A DNA stretch of 64,000 nt. It comes from Candidatus Poribacteria bacterium (lineage in GTDB: Bacteria; Poribacteria; WGA-4E; WGA-3G). The translations under genes were made by a program, and so were the position numbers. Of the stretch, positions 35,003 to 53,299 are shown piece after piece. Below the pieces are notes generated by a model. That model had not been told where the DNA came from and made no database searches. It saw only the letters and a list, made by a program, of their open reading frames with translations. Position 1 is the first letter of the stretch. Each line of letters opens with the position of its first letter. Location: positions 96,001 to 160,000 of the forward strand of contig CBDBFU010000012.1 of assembly GCA_965205025.1 (NCBI GenBank). Reading direction: 5' to 3'.

Positions 35003-35857
35003 CTACCAGATGAATTGAATTTTATGACTTCCTCCCAGCAGATATTGTGATGGAGTAATGTTATCCTTAGCCACTTGGTAATACTCTGGTAAGATTTCTA
35101 TGCCAGCAGAATTTCTATGTAAGTCATGAGCGACTCGGCAGGTAGTCCCGGAACCTGCAAACGGATCTAATACCCAGTCATTCTCTTTCGTAAACAGTTT
35201 AATGAACCATTCAGGTAAGGTCTTTGGAAAGACAGCACTATGATTACGATTGCCAGTTTCTGTTGCTAAATGCAATACATTCGTGGGATATGCCATTTTA
35301 CGGTCTAACCAATTTGAAACATTTTTACCAAATCCACTCCCTACCTTTGAGGTGTCCCTGGTTTGGTCAGTCTTACTTAGTTTTTTTAGTCTTCTCTCAG
35401 CCCAATCTCCCATAGGTACCATAACCTCATCTTGGTACATATTGAAGTTTTTCTCTTTATTAAATTGGATACACCTTTCCCAAGCATCTCTGAAACGATT
35501 AGGCCATTTCCCTGGGTAACTATTTTTCTTATGCCAAACGAATTCCTCTGTCCATAGCCAACCTTGCCTTTTCATCTCAAGTATAAGCTCAATTACATAG
35601 GTGTGTCGTTCTCCATTAACTGCCTTCTCTTTTATATTCAGGATGAATGTTCCACAAGGTTTAAGGACTCTCAGGAATTGTTCAGCTCGCGGCATAAACC
35701 AATTAACATATTCCTCAGGTTTTATACCTCCATAGGTCTTAGATCGTCTATCTGCATACGGTGGAGAGGTCACAATAAGATCAATGGAATCCGCATCAAA
35801 GTCCTGAAGGATATCTAAGCAGTCACCAAGATATAGGTCTGTTTTTATTTCTCTCAT
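35003..35857 (-). CDS. Site-specific DNA methyltransferase, beta class (likely N4-cytosine)
   Basis: DLIVTSPPY precedes HSAVFP and VLDPFAGSGTT. Confidence 0.9.
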   Translation of the reverse strand: MREIKTDLYLGDCLDILQDFDADSIDLIVTSPPYADRRSKTYGGIKPEEYVNWFMPRAEQFLRVLKPCGTFILNIKEKAVNGERHTYVIELILEMKRQGWLWTEEFVWHKKNSYPGKWPNRFRDAWERCIQFNKEKNFNMYQDEVMVPMGDWAERRLKKLSKTDQTRDTSKVGSGFGKNVSNWLDRKMAYPTNVLHLATETGNRNHSAVFPKTLPEWFIKLFTKENDWVLDPFAGSGTTCRVAHDLHRNSAGIEILPEYYQVAKDNITPSQYLLGGSHKIQFIW

Positions 35858-38371: not shown

Positions 38372-39652
38372 ATGGCAAAGTCACCAAACATTGTTTTTAT
38401 TCTTGCTGACGATCACGGTTATGGTGATATCTCAGCACATAATGGACCCTCAATTCAAACACCACATATTGATAGGATCGCAGAAGACGGTATACGACTT
38501 ACCCAATTCTATGCAAACTCCTCTGTCTGTTCACCAAGTCGTGCATCGCTCATGACGGGTCGCTATCCGGATAGAGTTGGTGTTCCAGGTGTTATACGCA
38601 CACATCCAGAAAACAATTGGGGATATTTTCGACAGGATGCTATCACACTCCCATCTATATTAAAAGAGAAAGATTACAAGACATCCCTAATTGGTAAGTG
38701 GCATCTCGGACTTGAAGATGAAAATCACCCATGTAAAAGAGGATTTGATTATTTTCACGGCTTTCTCGGTGATATGATGGATGACTATTACACGCATCTT
38801 CGCCATCAGAATAACTATATGCGTCGTGATTTTGAAACAATTGACCCAAGAGGACACGCTACCGATCTATTCTCGGATTGGAGTGTTGAGTTTATCCAAG
38901 AACAATCACAATCCACACAACCCTTCTTTCTATATCTTGCTTATAATGCACCGCACACCCCGATCCAACCACCGAATGATTGGGTTGATAGAGTGAAGGA
39001 TCGTGAACCAGATATTTCAGAACAACGGGCAAAATATATAGCACTTGTTGAGCACATGGATGCTGGTATTGGACGGGTTCTTGATTCACTTGAAAAAACC
39101 AATCAACTCTCCAATACTCTTGTCATATATACTTCTGACAACGGAGGTCAAATGGGGGTTGGGGCACATAACGGTCCACTTCGAGGTCAGAAGGGTGAAA
39201 TGTATGAAGGCGGTATACGTGTACCTACCTGTGTCATGTGGGAAGGACATATTCCTGAAGGTTATGTATCAAATCAAGTGGGTATGATAATGGATTTTTA
39301 TCCTACACTCTGTGAAATTACGGGTATACCTATAAACCATGAAATTGAGGGACAGTCAATTTTGAAAACATTGCAAGGCGAAAAACAGGATTTATCCGAA
39401 CGTCTACTCTACTGGATACGAAGAGAGGGAGGACAACAGTTCTTAGGAGATTGCCAACATGCTGTTAGACAGGGGGACATAAAACTGCTACATAACAGAC
39501 CTTTTGAATCCCTTGAACTTTATGACTTATCAAACGATCCGATGGAAGCTACCGATACTGCCAAAACGAATACTGATCTTTTTAAAGAGATGGGGAATCT
39601 TTTCCAGCAAGAGACACAGAAATCAGGGGGCATTCCTTGGCAAAAAGCATAA
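38372..39652 (+). CDS. Sulfatase (arylsulfatase A-like)
   Basis: PNIVFILADD.GYGD, CSPSRASLMTGRY, GKWHLG, YNAPHTP, TSDNGG. Confidence 0.95.
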   Translation: MAKSPNIVFILADDHGYGDISAHNGPSIQTPHIDRIAEDGIRLTQFYANSSVCSPSRASLMTGRYPDRVGVPGVIRTHPENNWGYFRQDAITLPSILKEKDYKTSLIGKWHLGLEDENHPCKRGFDYFHGFLGDMMDDYYTHLRHQNNYMRRDFETIDPRGHATDLFSDWSVEFIQEQSQSTQPFFLYLAYNAPHTPIQPPNDWVDRVKDREPDISEQRAKYIALVEHMDAGIGRVLDSLEKTNQLSNTLVIYTSDNGGQMGVGAHNGPLRGQKGEMYEGGIRVPTCVMWEGHIPEGYVSNQVGMIMDFYPTLCEITGIPINHEIEGQSILKTLQGEKQDLSERLLYWIRREGGQQFLGDCQHAVRQGDIKLLHNRPFESLELYDLSNDPMEATDTAKTNTDLFKEMGNLFQQETQKSGGIPWQKA

Positions 39653-39845: not shown

Positions 39846-39874
39846 TTGACATGCCGTAAAATCCGTTGTATAAT
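39846..39874 (+). promoter_or_regulatory. Consensus sigma70 promoter of the grpE-hsp70-J-like operon
   Basis: TTGACA-N17-TATAAT exact match. Confidence 0.75.
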
Positions 39875-39938: not shown

Positions 39939-40655
39939 TTGAGCAGTGAAATGAATAACGATCTTGATGCAAAATTAAAAAAAATCTTGGATAGTGAAAC
40001 AAACTTAGATACGGATAAACCTGATGACACAGTAGATACTGTTGGAGATACCCCAATGGAGGACATGGAATTACATCAGATAAATACACTTACTGAGATT
40101 AACCAGTCTTTGACGGTATTACTCGAATTATTTGAAAAACACATATCTGGAAATCAGAATCAAGTCCAGATGTTTGATAAAATGTATGCCGAAATGAAGG
40201 ACTATAAAGAGAGTTTTCTACTTGAAGTACTTCATAAACCGGTTATCCATAACTTAATTCAACTCTACGATAGTTTTGTATCACTTGAATCTCAGCTTAC
40301 TAACCTTATTGATGAGAATAATGATAACACACTATTAAATGAGTTGGGGCAATATAGTAGTAATTTACAGAATTTTCGTTTTGAACTTGAAGAAGTTTTA
40401 TACCGCATGGATGTAACACCCTATAAGGATTCACCAGATACATTGGATAGGCAGTTACACAAGACACGGAAAGTCATATCTACTGACGATCCAAATTTGG
40501 ATCAGAAAGTAGCAGAAGTGCATAAAATTGGATTCTATTGGCGTGAGAAAGTATTTCGTCCGGAAGATGTAACCATTTATCGTTATACGGCCTCCACAGA
40601 AAAATCTGAACATCGTAATACTAAACATTCTTCAGATCAGCAAAGGGGAGATTAA
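39939..40655 (+). CDS. GrpE-like nucleotide exchange factor
   Basis: Long N-terminal helix, LIQLYD, then LD..LH...V.....D..VAEV.K.GF.W..KV.RPEDV.IY (GrpE beta head). The stop abuts the hsp70 ATG. Confidence 0.8.
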   Translation: MSSEMNNDLDAKLKKILDSETNLDTDKPDDTVDTVGDTPMEDMELHQINTLTEINQSLTVLLELFEKHISGNQNQVQMFDKMYAEMKDYKESFLLEVLHKPVIHNLIQLYDSFVSLESQLTNLIDENNDNTLLNELGQYSSNLQNFRFELEEVLYRMDVTPYKDSPDTLDRQLHKTRKVISTDDPNLDQKVAEVHKIGFYWREKVFRPEDVTIYRYTASTEKSEHRNTKHSSDQQRGD

Positions 40656-42251
40656 ATGGGTAAAGTTGTCGGAATAGATTTAGGTACGACATTTTCTGTG
40701 ATAGCACATATAAATGAGCATGGACAACCTGAAATTATCCCCAATTTGGAAAGTGACCGAATCACACCATCGGTCGTAATGTTTGAAGACAATCTTGTAA
40801 CTGTTGGGAAAATAGCTAAGCAGAATGCCAGAGCTGTTCCTGAACAGATTGTTGAGTTTATCAAAAGGGAGATGGGTAAATCAAGAACGAATTTCTTCCG
40901 TACATTCGATGAAAAAGACTATTCCCCTGAAGAACTATCTGCGCTCATTTTGACGAAACTGAAACAGGATGCAGAAATCTATCTGAATGAAGAGGTAACT
41001 GATGCTGTAATCACTGTACCCGCGTATTTTCACGACGCAGAAAGGGAAGCCACCCGAAATGCAGGTAAAATTGCAGGTTTTAATGTGCTTCAAGTCTTGA
41101 ACGAACCGACCGCAGCTGCACTCGCTTATGGAATCGATCAACTGGGTAATAACCAAAATGTATTTGTATTCGACCTTGGTGGTGGTACATTTGATGTGAC
41201 AATTATGCAGGTCTCAGAAGCTGAAATACAAATGTTAGCAACAAATGGTGACCATAGGTTAGGAGGTAAAGATTGGGACGACAAAATCATTACTTATGTT
41301 GCTGAGATGTTTGAGATAGAACATGGAGAGAATCCTCTGGATGATCTACATACATATCAAGACCTTCAACTGGATGCAATTGGAGCCAAAGAATCCTTAT
41401 CTCAACGACAAAGAGCATTAATTGTATGTGGATATAATGGGAAAACAACTCGTGTCGAATTAATGCGCGAGAAATTTGAAGAACTTACGGCAGATCTACT
41501 TGAGAGATGTCGAACTTTGTGTGAATTAGTATTATCAGAGGCAGAAATGGCTTGGACTGATATTGATAAGATTTTATTGGTTGGCGGGTCGACACGGATG
41601 CCTATGGTACAAGAAATGATACGGACAATTAGCGATAAAGAGATTAATCCACATGAAGTTAATCCTGATGAAGTCGTCGCATTAGGCGCGGCTATCCAAG
41701 GAACTCTACGTCAAATCACTGATGATACTGTTGAAACACCGGAAATGCCTGAAGCTGTTATTGAACGGTTTATTGGACCGGATGGTGTGCCAAAAGTCAC
41801 TGTAACTGACGGTGCTACACATAATCTCGGTCTTGTTGTCCTCAATTCACAACGCGATTATATTATCCATGTTATGATACCAAAAATGACTGCTGTACCG
41901 TGTGAAATTGCTGATCAATTCTTGACTGTAGATGAGAACCAACCAACTGTACTAATTGAGGTGGTGCAAGGACTTGAACAGGATCAGATTAAAAACCAAA
42001 TCCCATTTTTTGATGAATATAAGTTGGGAGAATGCACGCTTGAGTTACCTAACGGATTGCCACAAGGATCTCCAATTGAGGTAAATTATAAATATAATTT
42101 AGACCAAAATCTTGAGGTAACAGCAAAATCATTGACAGATGACGGTCCTACTGCAGTTTTTGATATCTTTTCAATAATTGATAGACCAACACTTAATGAA
42201 GAAGAAGTTTCCCAAGCACAAACAGATCTGCAAGAACTTACAGTTGAATAA
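40656..42251 (+). CDS. Hsp70/DnaK-family paralog lacking most of the alpha-helical lid
   Basis: GIDLGTT.S, TVPAYF, NEPTAAALAYG, DLGGGTFDV, LGG.DWD, LVGGSTRMP, NPDEVVALGAA. Only 531 aa long. Confidence 0.95.
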   Translation: MGKVVGIDLGTTFSVIAHINEHGQPEIIPNLESDRITPSVVMFEDNLVTVGKIAKQNARAVPEQIVEFIKREMGKSRTNFFRTFDEKDYSPEELSALILTKLKQDAEIYLNEEVTDAVITVPAYFHDAEREATRNAGKIAGFNVLQVLNEPTAAALAYGIDQLGNNQNVFVFDLGGGTFDVTIMQVSEAEIQMLATNGDHRLGGKDWDDKIITYVAEMFEIEHGENPLDDLHTYQDLQLDAIGAKESLSQRQRALIVCGYNGKTTRVELMREKFEELTADLLERCRTLCELVLSEAEMAWTDIDKILLVGGSTRMPMVQEMIRTISDKEINPHEVNPDEVVALGAAIQGTLRQITDDTVETPEMPEAVIERFIGPDGVPKVTVTDGATHNLGLVVLNSQRDYIIHVMIPKMTAVPCEIADQFLTVDENQPTVLIEVVQGLEQDQIKNQIPFFDEYKLGECTLELPNGLPQGSPIEVNYKYNLDQNLEVTAKSLTDDGPTAVFDIFSIIDRPTLNEEEVSQAQTDLQELTVE

Positions 42252-42327: not shown

Positions 42328-43704
42328 ATGTCTGATCGAGATGAATTTATAGCCTTTGTAACAGATTTTAAAGTTGTCTCACTTACTATTTCGGACGAAC
42401 AACGTAAAGGTCTTTTACGTAGAGCAGTACATCAACACGGTCTTACTGTAGAAGAAGCATACAGAATATTAGATAAATCGGGACTTGTAATTGGAGAACA
42501 ACAGGTAGATTTTTTTCAAGTATTAGGTATACCCTTTGAAGAGATTAAAACTAAAACCGAATCGGAGATTACAGGATGTGTTGAGTCAACCCACAAGAGA
42601 CTATATAGAGAATCCCTGAATTCGGGTGGTCGTCCACGGCCAGATGGTAGGTCAGAAGAACAGTGGCGAAGATTATTAAATCAAGCACGTGATGTCCTTA
42701 TTGATCCCATTAAGAGGCAAGGACATATTGATGAACTAAATACTTATGATGATGAAGAGTTTAATGAGGATATATCAATTAAGCCAACCACTTCTATAAG
42801 CAATTCATCATTTAATGTTGAGGAAAGGGTTATACCAGCACACAAAAAACTTGTATATTCTGTTGTATTTTCACCTGATGGCACATGTGTTGCCAGTGGG
42901 AGTGCTGACAAATCAATATGTATCTGGGATATTCAGGCTGAAAAGCAGAAACATATTCTTAACGGTCATCATGATACAGTAACATCTGTTAGGTATTCCC
43001 CAGACGGTAAAACCATAGCAAGCGGGAGTTTTGACGGAACAGTATGTTTATGGAATGCTAAATCTGGAGAGTTGAAAAAACGTTTAACAGAACAAAAAGA
43101 TAAAATTAGTTCCCTTGCTTATTCACCTGATGGAAAAACAATTGCAAGTGGGAGTTATAATGGAACTATTCAATTATACAATGCTGAGACAGGAGAACCT
43201 AAAATCCTCCTCAAAGGACATAAGAATTGGGTTAGTTCAGTTGTGTATTCACCTGATGGAAAAACAGTTGCATGTGCAAGTTATGATGGGAATGTATATT
43301 TATGGAATACTGAATCAGGCGTAAATATGCATGTCCTAACAGGTCATAAATTTAGTGTTATCGCAGTAACTTATTCACCTAATTCTGATACAATCATTAG
43401 TATTGATCTACAAGGAACAATTCTGGCATGGAATGCTATTTCTGGAAAACAAAAGAAACTCTCAACGGGGTTCATGTCCTGGGTTAGTTCAGTAGTTTAT
43501 TCCCCAGATGCAACGAATCTAACATGTGGTAGTTTTCATGGATCAATCACTTTATGGAATACAGATACATGGGAGGAAGTAAGAACTATTACAGGGCATA
43601 CCTCAACTGTAAAAGCACTATCCTACTCTCCAGATGGAAGGATTCTGGCAAGCTGCGGTGGAGACGGTAATGTACGAATTTGGAGTTCATCATTATACGA
43701 ATAA
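42328..43704 (+). CDS. J-domain-like module fused to a 7-bladed WD40 beta-propeller
   Basis: Shared N-terminal module (DFFQVLG...GGRPRPDGRSEEQW..LLNQARD.L.DP.KR), then GH..V.SV.YSPDG..IASGS.D repeats. Confidence 0.85.
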   Translation: MSDRDEFIAFVTDFKVVSLTISDEQRKGLLRRAVHQHGLTVEEAYRILDKSGLVIGEQQVDFFQVLGIPFEEIKTKTESEITGCVESTHKRLYRESLNSGGRPRPDGRSEEQWRRLLNQARDVLIDPIKRQGHIDELNTYDDEEFNEDISIKPTTSISNSSFNVEERVIPAHKKLVYSVVFSPDGTCVASGSADKSICIWDIQAEKQKHILNGHHDTVTSVRYSPDGKTIASGSFDGTVCLWNAKSGELKKRLTEQKDKISSLAYSPDGKTIASGSYNGTIQLYNAETGEPKILLKGHKNWVSSVVYSPDGKTVACASYDGNVYLWNTESGVNMHVLTGHKFSVIAVTYSPNSDTIISIDLQGTILAWNAISGKQKKLSTGFMSWVSSVVYSPDATNLTCGSFHGSITLWNTDTWEEVRTITGHTSTVKALSYSPDGRILASCGGDGNVRIWSSSLYE

Positions 43705-43788
43705 TACCTATTCAAGCTGCCGATCATTAATGACAGAATACTACAACTGAATTATTCTTGTTCATAGAATTTCTAATAGGTTTAATTA

Positions 43789-45030
43789 ATGTCCCAACGC
43801 GATGAATTCTTTGCATTTATTAATACTCTCAAAGATGCATCACCTACGATTACTGATGAACAACGAAAAGGCTTTCTCAGACTTGCAGTTGAAAAATATG
43901 GTTTAACTGTTGATGAAGCAACATCTATATTTAATGCATCGGGTATAATAATTGGGGAAATAGTTGATCTACTTGAAATCTTTGGATTAACTATCACAGA
44001 GATTAAGAGATATAATCAATCTGAAATTGTCGATCGCGTTGAGTCAATCCACAGTAAACTATATAGTGAATCTTTAAAGTCCGGTGGTCGTCCGCGTCCA
44101 GATGGTAGGTCAGAAGAACAGTGGCGAAGATTATTAAATCAAGCACGAGACACACTAACTGACTCAAAGAAACGGCACGAATATCTTACCACACTCCAAA
44201 TTAAAGAACCCTCCTTTGATATAGCATCAGGAAGCACAAGTCTTGAGGATATGTCACTTATTCATAAAGGTGAATTTGAAATGGGTAGCAATGATGACGA
44301 GGCTTTTGATGATGAACATCCGGTTCATACCGTTTTTCTTGACGAATTCTATATTGACCAATATCCTGTAACCAATGCACAATACAAGGCATTCCTTGAT
44401 GCAAGACCACAGTGGAGTAGACATGAAATTCCAAAAGAGTATTGTGATGTTGACTATCTAAAGCATTGGCGTTGGGATAGTTTTCCGAAAGGAGAAGCAG
44501 ATTATCCTGTTGTCAATGTAAGTTGGTATGCTGCTATGGCTTATGCTCAATGGAGAGGCAAACGTCTTCCAACTGAAGCTGAATGGGAAAAAGCTGCACG
44601 AGGTGATCTAATTGGCAATAAATATCCATACGGTAATTCAGTAGATCCCACTCAAGCGAATTATGACTGGAATGAGGGAAATACCACACCCGTTGGCAAA
44701 TATCCTTCAAATGGATATGAACTCTATGACATGTGCGGTAATGTTTGGGAATGGTGCCTTGATAAATATGAGAAATATTATTATAGAAACTCACCGACTC
44801 GTAACCCTATTGCTGGTGAAGATACTATTCACCAGTTGAATAGCAACTACTTAGAGATTGAATCTAACCGAGTATTACGGGGTGGTTCATGGCGTATACC
44901 TGCCTTATTAGTAAGAACAGCAAAACGTAATGCTGAATCACCATGGTTTTCACTGAATGTAATTGGATTTCGATGTGTATATCAGGTCTTACTTAAGGAT
45001 ATGTCTCCTTTACCTCCTTCCGTTATATGA
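43789..45030 (+). CDS. J-domain-like module + FGE/SUMF1 (CLec-fold) domain, paralog 1
   Basis: Shared N module, F.MGS..E.P.H.V, PVTNAQY, RLPTEAEWEKAARG, GNVWEW, RGGSW, GFRC. Confidence 0.9.
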   Translation: MSQRDEFFAFINTLKDASPTITDEQRKGFLRLAVEKYGLTVDEATSIFNASGIIIGEIVDLLEIFGLTITEIKRYNQSEIVDRVESIHSKLYSESLKSGGRPRPDGRSEEQWRRLLNQARDTLTDSKKRHEYLTTLQIKEPSFDIASGSTSLEDMSLIHKGEFEMGSNDDEAFDDEHPVHTVFLDEFYIDQYPVTNAQYKAFLDARPQWSRHEIPKEYCDVDYLKHWRWDSFPKGEADYPVVNVSWYAAMAYAQWRGKRLPTEAEWEKAARGDLIGNKYPYGNSVDPTQANYDWNEGNTTPVGKYPSNGYELYDMCGNVWEWCLDKYEKYYYRNSPTRNPIAGEDTIHQLNSNYLEIESNRVLRGGSWRIPALLVRTAKRNAESPWFSLNVIGFRCVYQVLLKDMSPLPPSVI

Positions 45031-45061
45031 ACTATCTTAACTTCTATATCAAAATTAGACT

Positions 45062-46447
45062 ATGCTAAAACGTAATGAGTATATAGACTTTATTAATCAA
45101 TTTAGAACTGTATCTCCAACTATCACAGATGAACAAAGGATTGGTCTTCTGCGACGAGGTGTTCAACAACATGGTCTATCAATTTCTGAGGCAGAGAAAA
45201 TAATTCTATCATCAGGATTAATTATCGGTGAACAGATAAATTATTTCGATATATTCGGTTTATCCATAGAAGATTTACAGAATAAAAACGAGGAGTTAAT
45301 TACAGCAGAAGTTGATACGATACACAGAAATCTATATAACGCTTCCTTAAAAGCAGGAGGTCGTATACGATCAGATGGCAGGACAGAAGAACAGTGGCGG
45401 ATCATATTAAATGAAGCACGCGATACTCTCAAGAATGTTGAAAAACGAAAATCTCATATTGAAATGCTACAATCCGATGTTCTACCTCCGATTGAAATCC
45501 TATTTGAAGATTCTCCTCTACAAGAAACTGACACAACACAAGAAACAATTCAAACACAACCAACCGAACAGTCAAGTGTGTTGCCATCTGTAAAAGTACT
45601 TCCTGAAGATGAATCTATACAAGAAACTGACACCCTTGAAGAATCTAATTTAACACAACCCGTAATAGAAGATGGTATGGCACTCATTCCTGCCGGAGAA
45701 TTTCAAATGGGGAGTGATGACATTGAGGCATACAATGACGAAAAACCTGTACATACTGTATACATAGATACATTCTTTATTGATCAATATCCTGTCACGA
45801 ATGTAGAATATCAAGAGTTTATTGATACCAATCCTGAATGGCGTAAACCCAAAAAGTGGTATGATAATACTGAAATTATTGCCGGTATTCACAAGAAATA
45901 TCATGACGGTGATTACCTAAAGACTTGGAAAAGAAACAATTTTCCAAAAAATGAAGATCATCATCCTGTAACTTGGGTGAGTTGGTATGCAGCCATGGCT
46001 TACGCACAGTGGAAAGGTAAAAGACTACCAACGGAAGCTGAATGGGAAAAAGCTGCACGAGGTGGTTTGACAGGACAGAAATATCCATGGGGAAATACCA
46101 TAAGCCTCAATCATCTAAATTACGATCTATATATCAGTAATACTACAGAAGTAGGTCAATACCCTGAAAATGGTTATGGTATTTATGATATGGCGGGGAA
46201 CGTATTTGAATGGTGCATAGATTTATGGGATGAAAACTTCTATACTAATTCTCCATACAATAATCCTGTCGCTGATGGATATTTAGCAGATATATTAGCT
46301 GATTTCACAAGCGCAATTACACCGAGAGTTGTGCGGGGTGGATCTTCTGTAAGTACTCCGAGAAACACACGTGTTTCATATCGACATAGAAATACTCCTA
46401 AACTGACATGTTTTAGTATTGGATTCCGTTGTGTAAGATCTAAATAA
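45062..46447 (+). CDS. J-domain-like module + FGE/SUMF1 domain, paralog 2
   Basis: Same architecture, with an acidic T/E/Q linker (QETDT twice). Confidence 0.9.
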   Translation: MLKRNEYIDFINQFRTVSPTITDEQRIGLLRRGVQQHGLSISEAEKIILSSGLIIGEQINYFDIFGLSIEDLQNKNEELITAEVDTIHRNLYNASLKAGGRIRSDGRTEEQWRIILNEARDTLKNVEKRKSHIEMLQSDVLPPIEILFEDSPLQETDTTQETIQTQPTEQSSVLPSVKVLPEDESIQETDTLEESNLTQPVIEDGMALIPAGEFQMGSDDIEAYNDEKPVHTVYIDTFFIDQYPVTNVEYQEFIDTNPEWRKPKKWYDNTEIIAGIHKKYHDGDYLKTWKRNNFPKNEDHHPVTWVSWYAAMAYAQWKGKRLPTEAEWEKAARGGLTGQKYPWGNTISLNHLNYDLYISNTTEVGQYPENGYGIYDMAGNVFEWCIDLWDENFYTNSPYNNPVADGYLADILADFTSAITPRVVRGGSSVSTPRNTRVSYRHRNTPKLTCFSIGFRCVRSK

Positions 46448-46500
46448 ACTACATTTTTATCAAATTTTTACTAATTTTTCATATATAAATTATTCTATCT

Positions 46501-47721
46501 ATGGCTGAAAGCAAAGAATTCATAGCATTTGTTAATAGATTAAAGACACTGTCACCGACCATAACCGAAGAGCAGCGTATTGGTCTTCTACGTCAAGGTA
46601 TGCAGGAATATAACCTCACCTCAGATGAAGCGGAAAATATTCTGAAAACATCAGGATTAATTGTTGGTGAACAAGATAATTATTTTGATGTCTTAGGAAT
46701 CTCAATTGAAGAATTTGAAGAACTTAGTGAAGCAGATATTATTGCGTATGTAGAATCCATCCACGACAAACTTTACAGAGCATCTTTGAATGCAGGAGGT
46801 CGGCCAAGGTCTGATGGTAGGACAGAAGAAGAGTGGCGGACACTACTAAATCAAGCACGAGATACATTAATAGATCCTGATATACGACGATTACACAATT
46901 CAACATTACAACAAACAGAAAATTCCTTAGATGATGGAATAACACATCTAAGTTCTGAAAATATGGTGTTAATCCCTGAAGGAGAATTTCAGATGGGATG
47001 TGATGATTATCAATCTGATAAGAGTGAGAAACCTGTCCATACTGTTTATGTTGATGCATTCTATATAGACTCTTTTCCGGTAACGAATCTACAGTACAAA
47101 TTATTTCTGGATGCGAACCCTCAGTGGAAATCTCCTAAAATAATTGATATTTATAGGATGCGAAAATATCGAGATACAGACTATTTGATGACTTGGGATA
47201 GGAACAAAGTTCCAACAGGAAAGGAAGAACATCCTGTAACTTGGGTGAGTTGGTATGCAGCTATGGCTTATGCTCAATGGTTAGGTAAAAGATTGCCAAC
47301 AGAAGCAGAATGGGAAAAAGCAGCACGTGGTGGCTTAGAAGAGAAAAAATATCCATGGGGTAATTCGATTGATGATTCCTATGCAAATTTTGGTATAAAC
47401 ATCGGTGAGACAACCCCAATTGGTAATTATCCTGCTAACAATTATGAAGTATACGATATGGTAGGGAATGTATCTGAATGGTGTTTAGATAAGTGGGATG
47501 AAAAATTCTATAGTTATTCACCACATATTAACCCAATTGCAGGTGGAAGTACTGAAAGGATTATAGAGACACATTCAAAATTAAGAGAGGAACGTGTAAT
47601 CAGAGGGGGTTCATGGCATACTGACCTTGAAGACCTACGAATATCCTACAGAACAGGATTAGCACCTTCAAAAACAGAAAGTTTTATAGGATTTCGTTGT
47701 GTGAAACCTATTAACCAGTAA
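46501..47721 (+). CDS. J-domain-like module + FGE/SUMF1 domain, paralog 3
   Basis: Same architecture. Confidence 0.9.
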   Translation: MAESKEFIAFVNRLKTLSPTITEEQRIGLLRQGMQEYNLTSDEAENILKTSGLIVGEQDNYFDVLGISIEEFEELSEADIIAYVESIHDKLYRASLNAGGRPRSDGRTEEEWRTLLNQARDTLIDPDIRRLHNSTLQQTENSLDDGITHLSSENMVLIPEGEFQMGCDDYQSDKSEKPVHTVYVDAFYIDSFPVTNLQYKLFLDANPQWKSPKIIDIYRMRKYRDTDYLMTWDRNKVPTGKEEHPVTWVSWYAAMAYAQWLGKRLPTEAEWEKAARGGLEEKKYPWGNSIDDSYANFGINIGETTPIGNYPANNYEVYDMVGNVSEWCLDKWDEKFYSYSPHINPIAGGSTERIIETHSKLREERVIRGGSWHTDLEDLRISYRTGLAPSKTESFIGFRCVKPINQ

Positions 47722-47763
47722 ACCAATTATTTCTCTTGTTAAAGACCTAATTGAGGATCAAGA

Positions 47764-49053
47764 ATGCGTGAATATGAAGAATTTATCTCTGTTATCAATA
47801 CACTCAAAGTACTATCACCAATAATAACTGAAGCGCAACGTATTGGTCTTCTGCGACAAGGTGTGCAGGAATATGGTCTCACTACAGATGAAGCGGAAAA
47901 TATTCTGAAAACATCAGGATTAATTGTTGGTGAACAAGATAATTATTTTGATGTTTTAGGAATCTCAATTGAAGAACTGGAAAATCTCAGTGAAGCAGAT
48001 GTCGACGCACATGTTGAATCTGTCCACGACAAACTTTACCGAACATCTTTGAATGCAGGAGGTCGTCCGCGGTCTGATGGTAGAACAGAAGTAGAGTGGC
48101 GAAACCTTTTAAATCAAGCAAAAGATACAATAACAGATCCCTTAAAAAGAAGTGAATATATTTACATTCTACAACAGGATAGAATAAAGGATATACCTAC
48201 TGAAACATCACAGGAATTGGAATCATCTGAGGCAAACACAATACCTCATGCATTAAGTAGTACATTTATACAGGATGGTATTGAGGTGCCTGATGATATG
48301 GTATATATACCAGCAGGAGAATTCCAAATGGGGAGTGAACATGCAGATGCAGAGGAGGATGAACAACCTATTCACACAGTTTTTGTTAATGCATTTCTTA
48401 TGGATAAATATCCTGTGACAAATAGGAAATTTAGAGAATTTCTGAATACTAATCCTGAGTGGCGGAAACCTGATGATATAATTAATCATATAAGATGGAA
48501 TTATCATGACGGTTCATATTTGAAGGATTGGCAGATGAATATGTATCCACCTGGGAAAGGTGATCATCCAGTGACACAGGTGAGTTGGTATGCTGCGATG
48601 GCGTATGCAGAATCTGTAGGTAAGCGTTTACCGACTGAAGCGGAATGGGAAAGAGCAGCACGCGGTGGCTTGGATGGTAAACACTATTCATGGGGTAATG
48701 TTGAAGATTTTGCTAATGCAGATGAGTATTTAAATGCTGAAGATAATTTGCCAATCGGCCTTACACCTGCCAATAATTATGGACTTTATGACATGTGTGG
48801 CAATGTATGGGAATGGTGTCTTGATGCATATAATGAGGATTTCTATAATGATACACCACAGAATAACCCATTTTATGGACCTAACAGCATAGAATGGGTA
48901 ATAGAACATTTTAGACGTATAACAATCGAACGTGTATTACGCGGAGGTCCTTGGGGTTTTGAAACTATAGGTGCACGAGTATCACAACGACTCAAAAGTG
49001 CCCCAACCGATACTTTACCTACTTACAGTTTTCGTTGTATAAAATATATTTGA
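47764..49053 (+). CDS. J-domain-like module + FGE/SUMF1 domain, paralog 4
   Basis: Same architecture. Confidence 0.9.
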   Translation: MREYEEFISVINTLKVLSPIITEAQRIGLLRQGVQEYGLTTDEAENILKTSGLIVGEQDNYFDVLGISIEELENLSEADVDAHVESVHDKLYRTSLNAGGRPRSDGRTEVEWRNLLNQAKDTITDPLKRSEYIYILQQDRIKDIPTETSQELESSEANTIPHALSSTFIQDGIEVPDDMVYIPAGEFQMGSEHADAEEDEQPIHTVFVNAFLMDKYPVTNRKFREFLNTNPEWRKPDDIINHIRWNYHDGSYLKDWQMNMYPPGKGDHPVTQVSWYAAMAYAESVGKRLPTEAEWERAARGGLDGKHYSWGNVEDFANADEYLNAEDNLPIGLTPANNYGLYDMCGNVWEWCLDAYNEDFYNDTPQNNPFYGPNSIEWVIEHFRRITIERVLRGGPWGFETIGARVSQRLKSAPTDTLPTYSFRCIKYI

Positions 49054-49117
49054 TAGGTATGGTCTTTTTGATAGAATAATTTCATAGAATATTGAAATAT
49101 AAATAGACTTACTAAAC

Positions 49118-50407
49118 ATGGCAAAACGTGAAGAGTTCATTCAGCTTATCAACACTTTTAAAACGGTGTCAGACACAATAACAGACAATCAAAGACGTGG
49201 TCTGTTGCAACAGGCTGTACAGATCTACGATCTCTCTATTGAAGAAGGTATAGAGATATTGGATTCATTAGGAATAGTTGTCGGCGATGAGATAAATTAT
49301 TTTGAGATATTAGGACTATCCCTTGAGGACATACAAGACAAGGATGACCACTCGGTTACTGATATTGTTAAAATAGCACATGATGACTTGTATAAAGTCT
49401 CCTTAACTGCTGGAGGACGGGTCAGATCAGATGGAAGGACTGAAGAACAGTGGCGAATACTACTGAACCAAGCGCGGAATATTCTGGGTGATAAAGAAAA
49501 AAGAAACGAATACATATCAACCCTTCTTCAAGAAGAATCTGAAGAATTTACAACTCCGAATACACCTACTATTCCGGGTACCGAACCTAATTCTATACAG
49601 ACGAGTGAAATTGTATCTGAACTGACCTCTCATATAATAATAGATCCTGACGATATTGAAATCCCGACTGAAATGGTATTGATCCCTTCAGGAGAATTTA
49701 TGATGGGATCTCATAGTGAAGAAATAAATGGTAGTGATTTATCATTACATAGTGTGTATGTAAATGGATACCTAATTGATAAATATCCTGTAACTAATTC
49801 TGAATTCCGTATTTTTCTCACAGAGAACGAACAATGGCAGAAAAACAACATACCCAATGAATTTCACAATGGTAAATACCTTAGTTCTTGGAACGGGAAT
49901 ATCTATCCAAGAAATAAAGACAATGATCCGGTTGTCGACGTAAGTTGGTATGCTGCCATGGCTTATGCTCAATGGATAGAGAAACGACTTCCAACAGATA
50001 TTGAATGGGAAAAAGCTGCACGTGGAGGGTTAACTGAAAAAACGTATCCCTGGGGTGATGATATTACTAACGACCTGGCGAATTACGGAATGATTGTTGG
50101 GAATACAACCCCTGTTGGCACCTATCCTCCAAATGAGTATGGTGCGTATGATATGGTTGGCAATGTGTGGGAATGGTGCCTTAATCATTATGAACATATT
50201 GAAGCATTTAGTAAACCAAGTATATCTGTTGAACAGATTGGTGATATCTTAGATTCCTACTTAGAAGTCGAAAGCAATCGTGTGTTACGTGGAGGGTCTT
50301 GGGCAAGTAGTGAACGAGCTCTTAATGTTGCATATAGAGGTAGTGCTGCCCCTGATTATACATATTACAGCTACGGGTTTCGATGTGTTAAGGATATTCA
50401 TGGGTAA
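49118..50407 (+). CDS. J-domain-like module + FGE/SUMF1 domain, paralog 5
   Basis: Same architecture. Confidence 0.9.
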   Translation: MAKREEFIQLINTFKTVSDTITDNQRRGLLQQAVQIYDLSIEEGIEILDSLGIVVGDEINYFEILGLSLEDIQDKDDHSVTDIVKIAHDDLYKVSLTAGGRVRSDGRTEEQWRILLNQARNILGDKEKRNEYISTLLQEESEEFTTPNTPTIPGTEPNSIQTSEIVSELTSHIIIDPDDIEIPTEMVLIPSGEFMMGSHSEEINGSDLSLHSVYVNGYLIDKYPVTNSEFRIFLTENEQWQKNNIPNEFHNGKYLSSWNGNIYPRNKDNDPVVDVSWYAAMAYAQWIEKRLPTDIEWEKAARGGLTEKTYPWGDDITNDLANYGMIVGNTTPVGTYPPNEYGAYDMVGNVWEWCLNHYEHIEAFSKPSISVEQIGDILDSYLEVESNRVLRGGSWASSERALNVAYRGSAAPDYTYYSYGFRCVKDIHG

Positions 50408-50467
50408 AATATCTTCAACTCTAATGTACATCTAATTTTCAGAGTTCATCTTTTTGGAACTGTATTA

Positions 50468-51845
50468 ATGGCAAAACGAGAAGAATTTATAGATGCAATC
50501 AATTTGTTTAGATCTGCCTCACAGTCCATTTCGGTAGAACAACGGATAGGACTTTTACAACAAGCTGTACAAGAGTATGGACTATCAATAGAAGAAGCAG
50601 AGGGGATAATCAAAGAAACAGGATTAAATGTCGGTGGTGCTATTAATTACTTTAGAGTCTTAGGTTTGTCAAATCACGAATTTGAAAATCTGAACGAAAC
50701 CACTATTACATCAATTATAGATGACGCACATAAACAACATTATACAGAATCATTAAGGGCAGGTGGCCTTCCTCGTCCTGATGGGAGAACCCAAGAACAG
50801 TGGAGAAATATCTTAAATCACGCACGCGATACTTTAATTGATCCACATAAACGCGAAGAATATCTATCACAATTATTGAGTGAAGAAGATTCATCTGATA
50901 GTCTCATTAATGATGTGTCCAACAATAATACCACTGATACGGAAATCTATAATCAGAATCATAACCAGACAGTCTCAATTGATAATAAAGCACAATTAAA
51001 TACATGCACCTTCGATTGTAAAAAATAAAAAAGTATTTACCCATCATGAATCACCTGCAAATATGGTACAAATCCCTGCTGGTGACTTCAGAATGGGTAG
51101 TAATAATGAAAAAGTTAGTAATAGAGAAAAACCTGCACATGTCGTGTATATTGACGAGTTTTTTATAGACACTAATTTAGTTACCAATGCAGAATATAAA
51201 GAGTTTGTAGATGCCAATCCACAATGGACAAAACCAACAAAATGGTTTCACTTAGAGAAAAAGATGAAATCTTATATACCTGAGAAATACCATGATGGTG
51301 ATTATCTAAAACATTGGAATGAGAATACATATCCTGATGAGAAAGCAGAACATCCTGTGACATGGGTGAGCTGGTATGCCGCAATGGCGTATGCTGAATG
51401 GGTGGCTAAACGTCTCCCAACAGAGGCAGAATGGGAAAAAGCTGCACGCGGTGGAATAACTGGACAGAATTATCCTTGGGGAGAATCAATTGATTATACT
51501 AAGGCTAATTATAATAGCTATATTGGTGAAACAACTTCTGTCGGTCAGTATCCTGCAAACGGATATGGAATTCATGATATGATAGGAAATGTCTGGGAAT
51601 GGTGTCTTGACGAGTATCAGGAAAATTACTATGCAAGTTCAGAACGCAAGAACCCAATTTGTGGTCCAAATACGGTTGAATCAATAGAATATAGTGATAT
51701 AGATAATAGACATGCACGGGTAATGCGAGGAGGTTCTTGGCTGGATGCCTCTCAATTCGTCCGTTCTGCATCCCGTTACAGGAACACACCTACACGTACA
51801 CTCGCAAGAATTGGGTTTCGTTGTGTCAAGTCTGCAACATCATAA
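50468..51845 (+). pseudogene. J-domain-like module + FGE/SUMF1 domain, paralog 6, split by a +1 frameshift in the linker (ORFs 50468-51028 and 51063-51845)
   Basis: The downstream frame is open from 51000. Deleting one A between 50998 and 51025 fuses the two ORFs. Confidence 0.85.
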
Positions 51846-51907
51846 TCCCGATAACTTCTTCATTGCAAATTTAGTTACACCTACATGTTTAATTACTGGT
51901 GGTACGT

Positions 51908-53299
51908 ATGTCAAATCGTGATGAGTTTATTGCTGTCGTAAATACACTCAAAACACTCTCTAATACAATTACAGATGAACAGAATAGAAGTCTATTACAG
52001 CAGGCAGTCCACGATCATGGTCTCTCAGTAGAAGACGCCTTGGAGATAATCGATTCATTAGGGATAATTGTTGGGGAAAAGATAAACTACTTAGAGATCT
52101 TAGGGTTTTCTATTGAAGATTTAAGTTCACAAGATGAATCTAACATTACTAAAATGCTTGAAATTGCCCATAAAAAATACTACTCTGAATCATTACAGTC
52201 GGGTGGGTTACCACGACAGGATGGGAGAACTCAAGAACAGTGGCGTACAATTCTAAATCAAGCCTATGATACATTGAAAGATCCAATAAAACGCAAGGAA
52301 CATATTGAAACCGTACAAACTGAGTCATCTCATGAGGAGAACACATCAACTATAGTAACCGAAATATCTGAACCTAAAGATACCTCATTACAAGTTGCAG
52401 TTCCAGAAGAAATGGTCTTAATTCCATCTGGGGATTTTCAGATGGGTAATAGTAATGAAAATGCAAATATACGCGAAACACCGGTACATATTGTCAATAC
52501 TGATGCATTTTATATTGACAAATATCCAATAACAAATGAACAATATAAAGCGTTTATAGATGCAAACCCATTATGGCGGAAACCATCTGAAGGATTGTGG
52601 TTATATCTTCAAAAATGGTATGAAAAAGGGAACGTTCGATTTCGATATAACTACATATATGATAAATATCATGATGGAGTGTATCTGAGACATTGGAGAC
52701 ATAATAGGTTCCCTCTTGAAACAGCTAATCATCCTGTTACCCATGTAAGTTGGTATGCTGCAATGGCGTATGCACAATGGGTTGGCAAACGTCTGCCAAC
52801 AGAAGCAGAATGGGAGAAAGCTGCACGGGGAGGGATAAATGGTCAGAAATATCCTTGGGGTGATTTAATGAATTCCAACATGGCAAATTGTAATGAGGAT
52901 GCAGATAAAACCACACCTATAGGAAAGTATCCTGCAAATAATTTCGGTGTTTTTGATATGGTTGGAAATATATGGGAGTGGTGCATTGATGAATATGTAA
53001 TGGATTTTTATACATCCTCTACATCTCTGAATCCTATCGCAGGCGTGGACTCAAAGGAGGACTTGGACAATTTCATTCTCAATTTTAGAGACGTAGATAG
53101 TGATCGTGTTTTGCGAGGTGGTACATCCTTTATTTCATCTGAACCTATCCATACTGCCGCACGTTGGGGTGGAACACCTATTCTTACTGAACATATTGCT
53201 TCCTATTCAACTAAGTATTTAGATACATTTTCAAGGCCAATCGCAGCAAACATTGGCTTCAGATGTGTATGGGATACAAACGTAAAAACGAATTCTTAA
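51908..53299 (+). CDS. J-domain-like module + FGE/SUMF1 domain, paralog 7
   Basis: Same architecture. Start set at MSNRDEF by comparison with the paralogs. Two long insertions in the variable loops. Confidence 0.9.
   Translation: MSNRDEFIAVVNTLKTLSNTITDEQNRSLLQQAVHDHGLSVEDALEIIDSLGIIVGEKINYLEILGFSIEDLSSQDESNITKMLEIAHKKYYSESLQSGGLPRQDGRTQEQWRTILNQAYDTLKDPIKRKEHIETVQTESSHEENTSTIVTEISEPKDTSLQVAVPEEMVLIPSGDFQMGNSNENANIRETPVHIVNTDAFYIDKYPITNEQYKAFIDANPLWRKPSEGLWLYLQKWYEKGNVRFRYNYIYDKYHDGVYLRHWRHNRFPLETANHPVTHVSWYAAMAYAQWVGKRLPTEAEWEKAARGGINGQKYPWGDLMNSNMANCNEDADKTTPIGKYPANNFGVFDMVGNIWEWCIDEYVMDFYTSSTSLNPIAGVDSKEDLDNFILNFRDVDSDRVLRGGTSFISSEPIHTAARWGGTPILTEHIASYSTKYLDTFSRPIAANIGFRCVWDTNVKTNS

Follow-up and report, generated by a model that had tools for sequence, protein, structure and literature searches.

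A Poribacteria gene cluster encoding a GrpE-like factor, a lid-less Hsp70 and eight paralogs with a J-like domain that lacks the HPD motif

We analysed a stretch of 64,000 nucleotides from a Candidatus Poribacteria genome (assembly GCA_965205025.1, contig CBDBFU010000012.1, positions 96,001 to 160,000; henceforth the window, from whose first base all coordinates are counted), and we describe here a cluster of chaperone-related genes within it. According to the list of open reading frames (ORFs) of the window, all long ORFs between 39939 and 53299 lie on the plus strand, separated by intergenic gaps of 0-84 bases, and they encode, in this order, a GrpE-like protein, a 531-residue Hsp70 and eight paralogs which all open with a common module of about 140 residues. 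The GrpE-like exchange factor (39939..40655, plus strand, 238 amino acids; PF01025, E 2.2e-8, 34.4 bits against a cut-off of 25.8) is the second, divergent one of this genome, which elsewhere encodes a canonical GrpE (E 2e-43) beside DnaJ, plus a second J-protein. Its stop codon directly abuts the start of the Hsp70 gene (40656..42251, plus strand; PF00012, E 2.7e-121). The product of that gene lacks a lid and will be referred to as the private Hsp70, the only other Hsp70 in the genome being the housekeeping DnaK of 643 residues.

The eight paralogs follow on the same strand. In paralog 1 (42328..43704) the module, i.e., an N-terminal stretch of roughly 55 residues (the N-domain) followed by a J-like domain without the histidine-proline-aspartate (HPD) motif, occupies residues 1 to ~143 and is fused to a WD40 propeller (E 9.9e-68). 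In the other paralogs the module is combined with a head of the FGE/C-type-lectin fold, as assigned by alignment and Pfam: paralogs 2 (43789..45030; PF03781, E 3.7e-63) and 3 (45062..46447), both without the catalytic cysteine pair, followed by paralogs 4 (46501..47721), 5 (47764..49053), 6 (49118..50407) and 8 (51908..53299), the last with an extra C-terminal insert in its head and an alternative GTG start at 51899. Paralog 4 is the copy used for AlphaFold modelling, and the loop between helices II and III of its model, NAGGRPRSDGRT, spans residues 97-108 (46789-46824, plus strand).

Paralog 7 is found in two pieces, the first of which (50468..51028, plus strand, 186 amino acids, no Pfam family) aligns as module and linker only, while the second (51063..51845, plus strand) consists of the FGE-fold head alone in a different reading frame (PF03781, E 1.2e-63). 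The first piece stops at a TAA within an A-rich tract (~51020-51033) and the head restarts 34 nucleotides on. The split could be a frameshift, a homopolymer assembly error or a genuine two-gene form. Short, module-only ORFs (open frames of 204-259 amino acids) are also present in other genomes of the genus. Upstream of the whole array, a promoter-like site (TTGACA-17-TATAAT; 39846..39874, plus strand) matches 12 of 12 consensus positions about 65 nucleotides 5' of the GrpE-like start; the total number of such consensus matches in the region does not exceed that in shuffled sequences, so the site serves as a lead only. A scan for consensus matches found no convincing plus-strand terminator within the array.

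The shared module and its J-like domain

Aligned over their first 150 residues, the eight paralogs show 44-54% identity to paralog 1 and share 27 invariant columns, and the most conserved part of the module is a loop of the form GG(R/L)xRxDG(R/K). It reads GGRPRPDGRS and GGRPRSDGRT in two copies each, and GGRIRSDGRT, GGRVRSDGRT, GGLPRPDGRT and GGLPRQDGRT in one copy each. These variants are exactly those listed in an earlier note, which was made from the letters of the window and their translations and which had proposed a non-canonical J-domain with this loop in place of HPD, behind a TerB-like helical hairpin. The other stretches that it pointed out likewise recur in all eight paralogs, namely the helix-I-like (N/D)(Y/F/L)(F/L)xx(L/F)G, the LLNQARDxLxDxxKR type (with small deviations, i.e., N for D in paralog 3 and I for L in paralog 5) and the N-terminal TITDEQRxGLLRxAVxxYGLSxEEA. 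The range that it gave, 42328..52310, does end with the eighth module, but the genes reach 53299 and the unit as a whole starts at 39939. A search of the genome found eight matches to the module, all of them at this locus.

We compared these copies with those of other genomes in a set of 160 distinct modules (8 from the window and 152 from 38 related loci, some of them overlapping on a single contig), which we number according to paralog 4. HPD is absent from all 8 window copies and from all 160 modules. By contrast with this loss, upheld by the alignments, the replacing GG(R/L)xRxDG loop is retained almost throughout: G99 is kept in 156 modules, R103 and D105 in 155 each, and G106 and W112 in 154 each, all other rows being gaps, and R113 is likewise invariant apart from gaps. 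The middle residue of RxD varies, with P in 76 modules, A in 34, S in 22 and T in 8.

The J-domain identity of residues ~57-142 emerged from comparisons of both sequence and structure. When a profile of 50 J-like sequences was aligned with one of 29 distinct canonical J-domains, drawn from genomes of the same order, hhalign gave a probability of 96.5% and an E-value of 9.8e-10 over 63 columns. When a profile of the eight window copies was searched against the PDB, 7 of the 8 sequences found at E<=10 were J-type co-chaperones, and with a 50-sequence profile this was true of 9 out of 9 matches at E<=1 (HscB at 8.2e-5). A profile search of 1.84 billion representative proteins recovered 132 relatives, and at the edge of that list stood true HPD-bearing J-domains together with members that have sub-threshold PF00226 scores.

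The AlphaFold model of paralog 4 (residues 1-142; mean pLDDT 89.2) predicts helices at residues 61-65, 69-73, 77-96, 109-124 and 126-141, with a 12-residue loop at 97-108. Comparison of this model by Foldseek, which the earlier note had suggested as a check, placed J-domain entries at all ranks from 1 to 9 (probability 0.89-1.00, target TM up to 0.72). In an exhaustive structural search of 48,161 chains, 11 of the 15 top rows were named as J-domain or J-type proteins, with Z-scores of 8.7-6.3 and matches covering model residues ~57-142. Over the whole search, DNAJB8 scored 8.7, E. coli HscB 7.5, Tim16 (2guz_B) 6.0 and E. coli DnaJ 5.8. The best score in the ESM Atlas, 0.83, was at chance level, leaving its DnaJ (0.79) and DjlA/TerB (0.77) clusters as leads only. 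As judged from sequence profiles and predicted structure, residues ~57-142 are thus a true but divergent J-domain with J topology, as the earlier note had read them.

The proposed TerB-like identity of residues 1-55 fared differently, finding no backing in either sequence or structure. PF05099 (TerB) had no match at E<=10 in four isolated N-domains, and none in a search of 41 genomes of the class, including this one. The best match of an N-domain profile in the PDB was insignificant (phage SPP1 gp23.1, E 0.12), and TerB entries were missing among the 50 structural-search matches listed, in which the N-domain matches were generic (Z 6.2 or lower). An hhalign comparison with a single E. coli DjlA also gave no match, a result without power since the J-domain of DjlA itself was missed too. 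AlphaFold models the N-domain as a generic three-helix bundle, and it is a separate unit: many relatives carry the J-like part alone, some have the two parts in reversed order, and some have a repeated N-domain.

The private Hsp70 and its modelled contact with the module

Mapped onto E. coli DnaK, the private Hsp70 keeps the ATPase residues D8, T11, K70, E171, D194, T199 and D201, and the beta part of its substrate-binding domain (SBD-beta) can be aligned. It stops at about DnaK residue 525, the point at which a lid would start, and its linker reads VTVTD (vs. VLLLD) after a 26-residue insert. In DnaK numbering it carries R167Q, E206Q, E217Q, D477K and D479N, with D393 and D481 kept, whereas the housekeeping DnaK of the genome keeps R167, E206, E217, D477 and D479. 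These changes are common to the family: among 28 Hsp70s of the locus type, position 167 is Q in all 28, 206 is K or R in 19, 217 is Q in 24, 477 is K or R in 27 and 479 is N in all 28. Passages in PMC7289447 describe an R167-D393-D481 network that is perturbed by the Asp of HPD, and a basic J-domain helix II that meets acidic residues of the nucleotide-binding domain (NBD). The helix II of the modules is acidic, with a mean net charge of -1.06 (n=160) vs. +2.55 in canonical J-domains (n=29), in step with the acidic J-contact residues that were lost on the Hsp70. Across 27 loci, no covariation was visible between Hsp70 position 206 and the charge of adaptor helix II.

Module and private Hsp70 also occur together. 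Of 24 other genomes of the genus, 18 carry the module, in 4-11 copies each, and it was not found in 16 genomes from three other families of the order. Among the named genome records with the motif, 35 of the 38 loci are titled as Candidatus Poribacteria metagenome-assembled genomes and 3 as 'uncultured bacterium', this sampling having covered close relatives only. In 27 of the 38 related loci, the module has a locus-type Hsp70 no more than 8 kb away (72-97% identity). Conversely, five out of five module-negative genomes of the genus have no intact private Hsp70, only the housekeeping DnaK. One of the five holds a fragment (G009:C1:1640947-1641291) that is 72% identical to residues 366-481 of the private Hsp70 and has an internal TGA, and it looks like the remnant of a lost system.

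To place the contact between the two partners, we modelled the private Hsp70 (23-row alignment) together with ATP and the module of paralog 4 (50-row alignment). The complex reached an ipSAE of 0.76 (0.75-0.77 across runs), the best of 3 controls scoring 0.00; the runs share at least 76% of contacts and the pLDDT of the partner is at least 79. The mark that it passes is reached by 58 of 80 solved complexes and by 2 of 110 mismatched pairs, a calibration that applies roughly here, given the use of our own alignments and ATP. On the module, the confidently predicted contacts are residues 93, 96-104 and 106, which cover the last part of helix II together with the conserved loop. The Hsp70 contributes residues 63, 66-68, 80-83, 205, 209, 212-213, 216, 220, 226, 228-229, 231 and 234, corresponding to DnaK 63-68 and 91-94 (lobe IB) and 230-259 (lobe IIB), with none at the canonical site made up of IIA, linker and SBD-beta. 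In a set of 23 locus-type Hsp70s, 15 of these 19 contact residues never vary and 18 are shared by at least 18 members (229 is variable); 17 of the 19 positions differ from DnaK.

Since the predicted pose is unlike that of the solved complex of a J-domain with DnaK, the score is unlikely to come from the predictor having memorised that structure, and the model supports binding of the module to NBD lobes IB and IIB of the private Hsp70 through its loop. Exchange factors such as GrpE hold on to these lobes, so that an effect of the module on nucleotide exchange would be as likely as one on hydrolysis.

An alternative is that the J-like domain sits at the canonical site (NBD IIA, linker and SBD-beta), where RxD would directly replace HPD and trigger hydrolysis in the cognate Hsp70 only. 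This follows the reading in the earlier note of the loop as a replacement for HPD, and several observations fit: in the AlphaFold model the loop lies between helices II and III, as HPD does, and starts with N97-A98-G99-G100 right behind helix II, which is the place of HPD in J-domains; 'RPD' is the commonest form of RxD (76 of the 160 modules); and in a gapless alignment, the HPD of one short relative (P0130) comes to lie no more than two residues from RxD. Moreover, given the network described in parts of PMC7289447, the combination of R167Q with conserved D393 and D481 would allow the J side to supply the arginine. However, H-P-D falls on G-G-(R/L) in hhalign as well as in a MAFFT alignment made jointly with bridging sequences, and both bring the invariant Asp (D105/106) nearer to the later 'NPGD' position of canonical J-domains. 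In addition, the complex model put the module on lobes IB and IIB in 3 out of 3 runs, using no canonical-site residue and with D105 and R107 not among the confident contacts. The loop does replace HPD, then, but the simple picture in which RxD stands in for it is probably wrong in detail, and we consider action at the canonical site rather unlikely.

The earlier note had further proposed an orthogonal pair in which the module works with its cognate Hsp70 and avoids housekeeping DnaK. The divergence of the private Hsp70 from DnaK at the J-reading positions and its co-occurrence with the module speak for this part of the proposal, and orthogonality is plausible; judging by the complex model, it would probably act through a surface other than the canonical J site.

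Heads, relatives and the age of the repertoire

In seven paralogs the head belongs to the FGE/C-type-lectin fold (PF03781, E 1e-58 to 1e-63). In one head aligned with the solved S. coelicolor and human enzymes, the catalytic CxxxxC corresponds to LDASQF, and none of the seven heads has a Cys at a position of the catalytic pair. The heads differ from one another mostly in the insert that follows NPQW and in the RGGSW...GFRC stretch near the C-terminus. According to parts of Kaur et al. 2021 (PMC8195603), non-catalytic 'FGS' domains serve as lectin-like sensors in NTPase-centred conflict systems, and from their sequences the heads at this locus appear to be binders rather than enzymes. The genome has 22 FGE-fold matches in all, 7 of them at the locus. 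The 38 related loci contain 165 module-bearing ORFs, of which 146 have an FGE head, 14 another head and 5 are short; the 14 other heads are WD40, or a family-less domain with a membrane anchor or ankyrin repeats. Among more remote relatives, the domains present are Ank, HEAT, TPR, PEGA with peptidoglycan-binding, or S1.

To assess the age of this repertoire we inferred maximum-likelihood phylogenies for 75 paralogs, taken from the window and from 11 loci (ORFs of more than 350 residues on non-overlapping contigs, with the split paralog 7 left out). Each of the seven full-length window paralogs belongs to an ortholog group of its own. In a quick tree, each sits within a cross-species clade whose enclosing fork has 97-100% SH-aLRT support, and the seven require seven changes in every bootstrap tree (5-95% range 7-7). 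Seven cross-species ortholog groups mean that the repertoire predates the species splits and has been stable since, and such an old, stable set is more in keeping with fixed targets than with a fast arms race. A diversity-generating retroelement is not supported, as a search of the genome (95.5% complete) for reverse transcriptases (PF00078) gave no match. When five window proteins were searched against PADLOC-DB 2.0, the only match beyond weak ones (E 9e-4 to 0.026) was that of the WD40 head to the repeat model HEAT-ARM_XIII (E 2.6e-23), and among 32 family members the sole match was again to one HEAT-ARM model.

Some relatives combine the module with parts of an Hsp70. A pair of metagenomic proteins (P0047/P0061) consists, respectively, of a Q167-type Hsp70 NBD followed by the module and nothing else, and of the module followed by linker and SBD-beta; these are either an Hsp70 split in two with a module on each half, or fusions made by gene calling. 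We count such fusions of the module with Hsp70 halves as support for a coupling between module and Hsp70.

Two further loci show how the family is arranged elsewhere. In a related species (L091, 1-13675) we found, in this order, a caspase (Peptidase_C14), an Hsp70-vWA fusion that keeps Arg at DnaK position 167, a GrpE-like protein and a Q167-type lid-less Hsp70, followed by the J-like part alone with a family-less domain and a membrane anchor, a membrane protein and two membrane-anchored FGE-fold proteins. A second locus (L092, 4236-7943, minus strand) has a trio without a nearby Hsp70, namely the full module with the same family-less domain as in L091 and a membrane anchor, a 302-residue membrane protein and a membrane-anchored FGE-fold protein, adjoining a 1289-residue HEAT-repeat protein and secreted WD40 proteins; the same trio recurs after the Hsp70 in L091. 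In many relatives the J-like domain is followed by a conserved domain of ~150 residues that has no Pfam family and starts with (I/F)(K/T)F(P/R/S)NG(D/N)EA(T/S)(S/N)I(P/S)QLA (e.g., P0012, P0069, P0074 and L091 8319-9707).

Arrangements of this kind bear on a second alternative, in which the module would be a homotypic or heterotypic assembly adaptor (EAD-like) that gathers heads and Hsp70 halves, while the Hsp70 would chaperone or gate the assembly without any J-type contact. The family members with a module on the Hsp70 NBD alone or on linker and SBD alone fit it, as do one protein with two J-like copies, the variable order of N-domain and J-like part, the repeatable N-domain, and the caspase and Hsp70-vWA fusion at a related locus. 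Many paralogs that share one adaptor and differ in their heads (FGS, WD40, Ank, HEAT, TPR) also agree with the 'EAD principle' as put forward in parts of Kaur et al. 2021 (PMC8195603). However, the Hsp70 of the window carries no module, which makes a homotypic link to it impossible here, the complex model predicts a confident, direct contact between module and Hsp70 via the most conserved loop, and no PADLOC defence family was found in the 5 window proteins or in 31 of the 32 family members (the other matching HEAT-ARM only). We regard this alternative as quite unlikely.

The surroundings of the cluster consist of carbohydrate-degrading genes (GH32, UxuA-like and sulfatase; GH95 downstream) and one N6/N4 DNA methylase (35003-35857, minus strand; PF01555, E 7.7e-45) about 4 kb upstream. 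The sulfatase gene (38372-39652) lies immediately upstream of the locus and, together with the placement of the heads in the Pfam FGE-sulfatase family, would fit a machine for sulfatase maturation, in which the Hsp70 would hold sulfatase precursors in an unfolded state so that FGE enzymes tethered to it could form formylglycine. Yet the catalytic cysteine pair is missing not only from all seven heads but, by a motif check, also from the C-terminal ~95 residues of 14 other FGE-fold genes of the genome, even though the window encodes a sulfatase; with one WD40 head here and Ank, HEAT or TPR heads in relatives, such a machine is very improbable. That the J-like domains are decaying, functionless remnants of ordinary J-domains, as the loss of a motif held essential for J-domain function might suggest, is hardly credible given a replacement loop that is the most conserved part in 160 distinct copies, seven full-length window paralogs in seven ortholog groups older than the species splits, and a partner Hsp70 that is 72-97% identical across loci.

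A candidate Hsp70 machine and its known counterparts

Considering this evidence, the explanation that we hold with moderate confidence is that of a self-contained, insulated second Hsp70 machine with a repertoire of adaptors, whose loop docks on lobes IB and IIB. The GrpE-like factor, the lid-less Hsp70 and the eight adaptors would together form the machine, each adaptor consisting of a predicted three-helix N-domain, the HPD-less J-domain, a linker and a putatively non-enzymatic head (one WD40 and seven FGE/C-type-lectin-fold). The J-fold would serve as the docking piece, with the tip of its helix II-III hairpin, L-x-A-G-G-(R/L)-P-R-x-D-G, binding an IB/IIB patch that is invariant in this lineage. 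The missing canonical J-reading surface (R167Q, and E206, E217, D477 and D479 turned basic or neutral), together with the new contact, would insulate the private Hsp70 from DnaK-DnaJ-GrpE. The heads would pick the targets, the Hsp70 would provide ATP-driven work or switching, and the GrpE-like factor would reset it. Insulation, the adaptor role and any effect on ATPase activity or exchange are what we infer from the computational findings; candidate roles include intracellular surveillance of foreign or host molecules and the handling of specific clients of the cell's own.

Several observations weigh against this explanation. On the side of the J-domain, the Pfam J-domain model reaches none of the eight window copies (in this genome it finds only the two ordinary J-proteins, and the module as a whole has no match in Pfam, NCBIfam or PADLOC), the Foldseek E-values are weak (0.23 or worse, none at E<=0.001), and Z-scores of 6-9 are in the middling range for helical models, so that the fold call rests on the agreement of sequence and structure evidence. 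The register of HPD varies by method, falling on Y93-x-x with the 8-copy profile, on a conserved His with the 50-sequence profile and on G-G-R with hhalign and MAFFT, and because HMMER alignments to HscB differ, it is uncertain by a few residues. On the side of the contact, binding and site come from a structure model that grades its own confidence, and the predicted site overlaps the exchange-factor lobes, meaning that the model could reflect an exchange-factor-like pose. The module on separate Hsp70 halves and the module repeats in one protein fit a homotypic adaptor role equally well. Finally, the gene annotation of the window and the PADLOC search revealed no defence, effector or client gene in the window that hints at a function, and a search for RNA runs covering the locus listed none.

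A more far-reaching version of the insulated-machine explanation is tentative, and we put it forward as a possibility rather than an expectation. Here the J-fold with its new docking site would not act as an HPD trigger; the adaptors would instead tether targets and set the nucleotide state of the Hsp70 in competition or cooperation with the private GrpE. The result would be an insulated, programmable Hsp70 switch with eight heads that watch for foreign or host molecules in a sponge symbiont, i.e., a counterpart of NTPase-centred surveillance.

HPD is treated as the invariant, defining trigger of J-domains and Arg167 as its reader on Hsp70, and by the account in parts of PMC10410713, a large J-domain survey discarded sequences without HPD. 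The family described here has naturally lost both sides of the HPD-Arg167 contact, yet it keeps strong conservation, a dedicated exchange factor and an adaptor repertoire. If the modelled contact is true, J-folds have an additional route to Hsp70s, and engineers would find in this locus an orthogonal pair of chaperone and adaptor that already exists in nature. In Poribacteria, abundant symbionts of sponges, the system may constitute a functional module of its own, with targets that could be relevant to symbiosis or to defence. In the open-access papers searched, we found no published description of this operon; the known systems that it resembles are compared below.

NTPase-centred conflict systems, as presented in parts of Kaur et al. 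2020 and 2021 (PMC7159879, PMC8195603), resemble the locus in their non-catalytic FGE-fold, WD40, Ank, HEAT and TPR heads, in having one N-terminal adaptor on many paralogs and in their NTPase core, and the related locus with a caspase and a vWA fusion adds to the likeness. The differences are that the window has no effector enzyme, the genome no diversity-generating reverse transcriptase and the system no PADLOC match, and that the repertoire is old and stable, not fast-turning. In those parts of the two papers, Hsp70 features only within GTPase-centred systems, alongside canonical DnaJ-FNIII proteins.

Among specialised chaperones, Tim16/Pam16 is another J-fold without HPD, and one of its structures (2guz_B) matches our model at Z 6.0. 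Tim16 acts by pairing with the HPD-bearing J-protein Tim14, whereas the operon encodes no HPD-bearing J-protein, the only two of the genome being encoded elsewhere, and here the loop itself is invariant and is modelled on the Hsp70. HscA-HscB and Ssq1-Jac1, which serve iron-sulfur clusters, are likewise dedicated Hsp70-J pairs with a co-evolved, divergent interface. The PDB sequences that best match the module are those of HscB and Jac1, which also score high by structure (Z 7.5, 7.0 and 5.9). Unlike the module, both keep HPD and bind the canonical site, as described in parts of PMC7289447, and each of these systems has one partner and one client domain rather than an array.

HscC-DjlB/DjlC of E. 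coli shares with the locus a second, specialised Hsp70 with a reduced lid, neighbouring dedicated J-type partners and a variant of HPD, the HPE variant being described in parts of PMC10410713. DjlB and DjlC nevertheless keep H-P-E, which the locus adaptors lack, and no GrpE is annotated in a 12-kb E. coli stretch around hscC. The private Hsp70 is not an HscC orthologue: its identity to HscC is 35%, below its 40% identity to DnaK, and HscC keeps R167, E206 and E217.

With the DnaK-DnaJ-GrpE triad and class C J-proteins, finally, the locus has in common an Hsp70 with intact ATPase residues, a GrpE-family factor and a four-helix J-fold joined to a targeting domain. It departs from them in lacking HPD, R167, the acidic helix-II contact residues and the lid, in a helix II that is acidic rather than basic, in a modelled contact at lobes IB and IIB instead of IIA, linker and SBD-beta, and in bringing together eight putative adaptors in one operon with their Hsp70.

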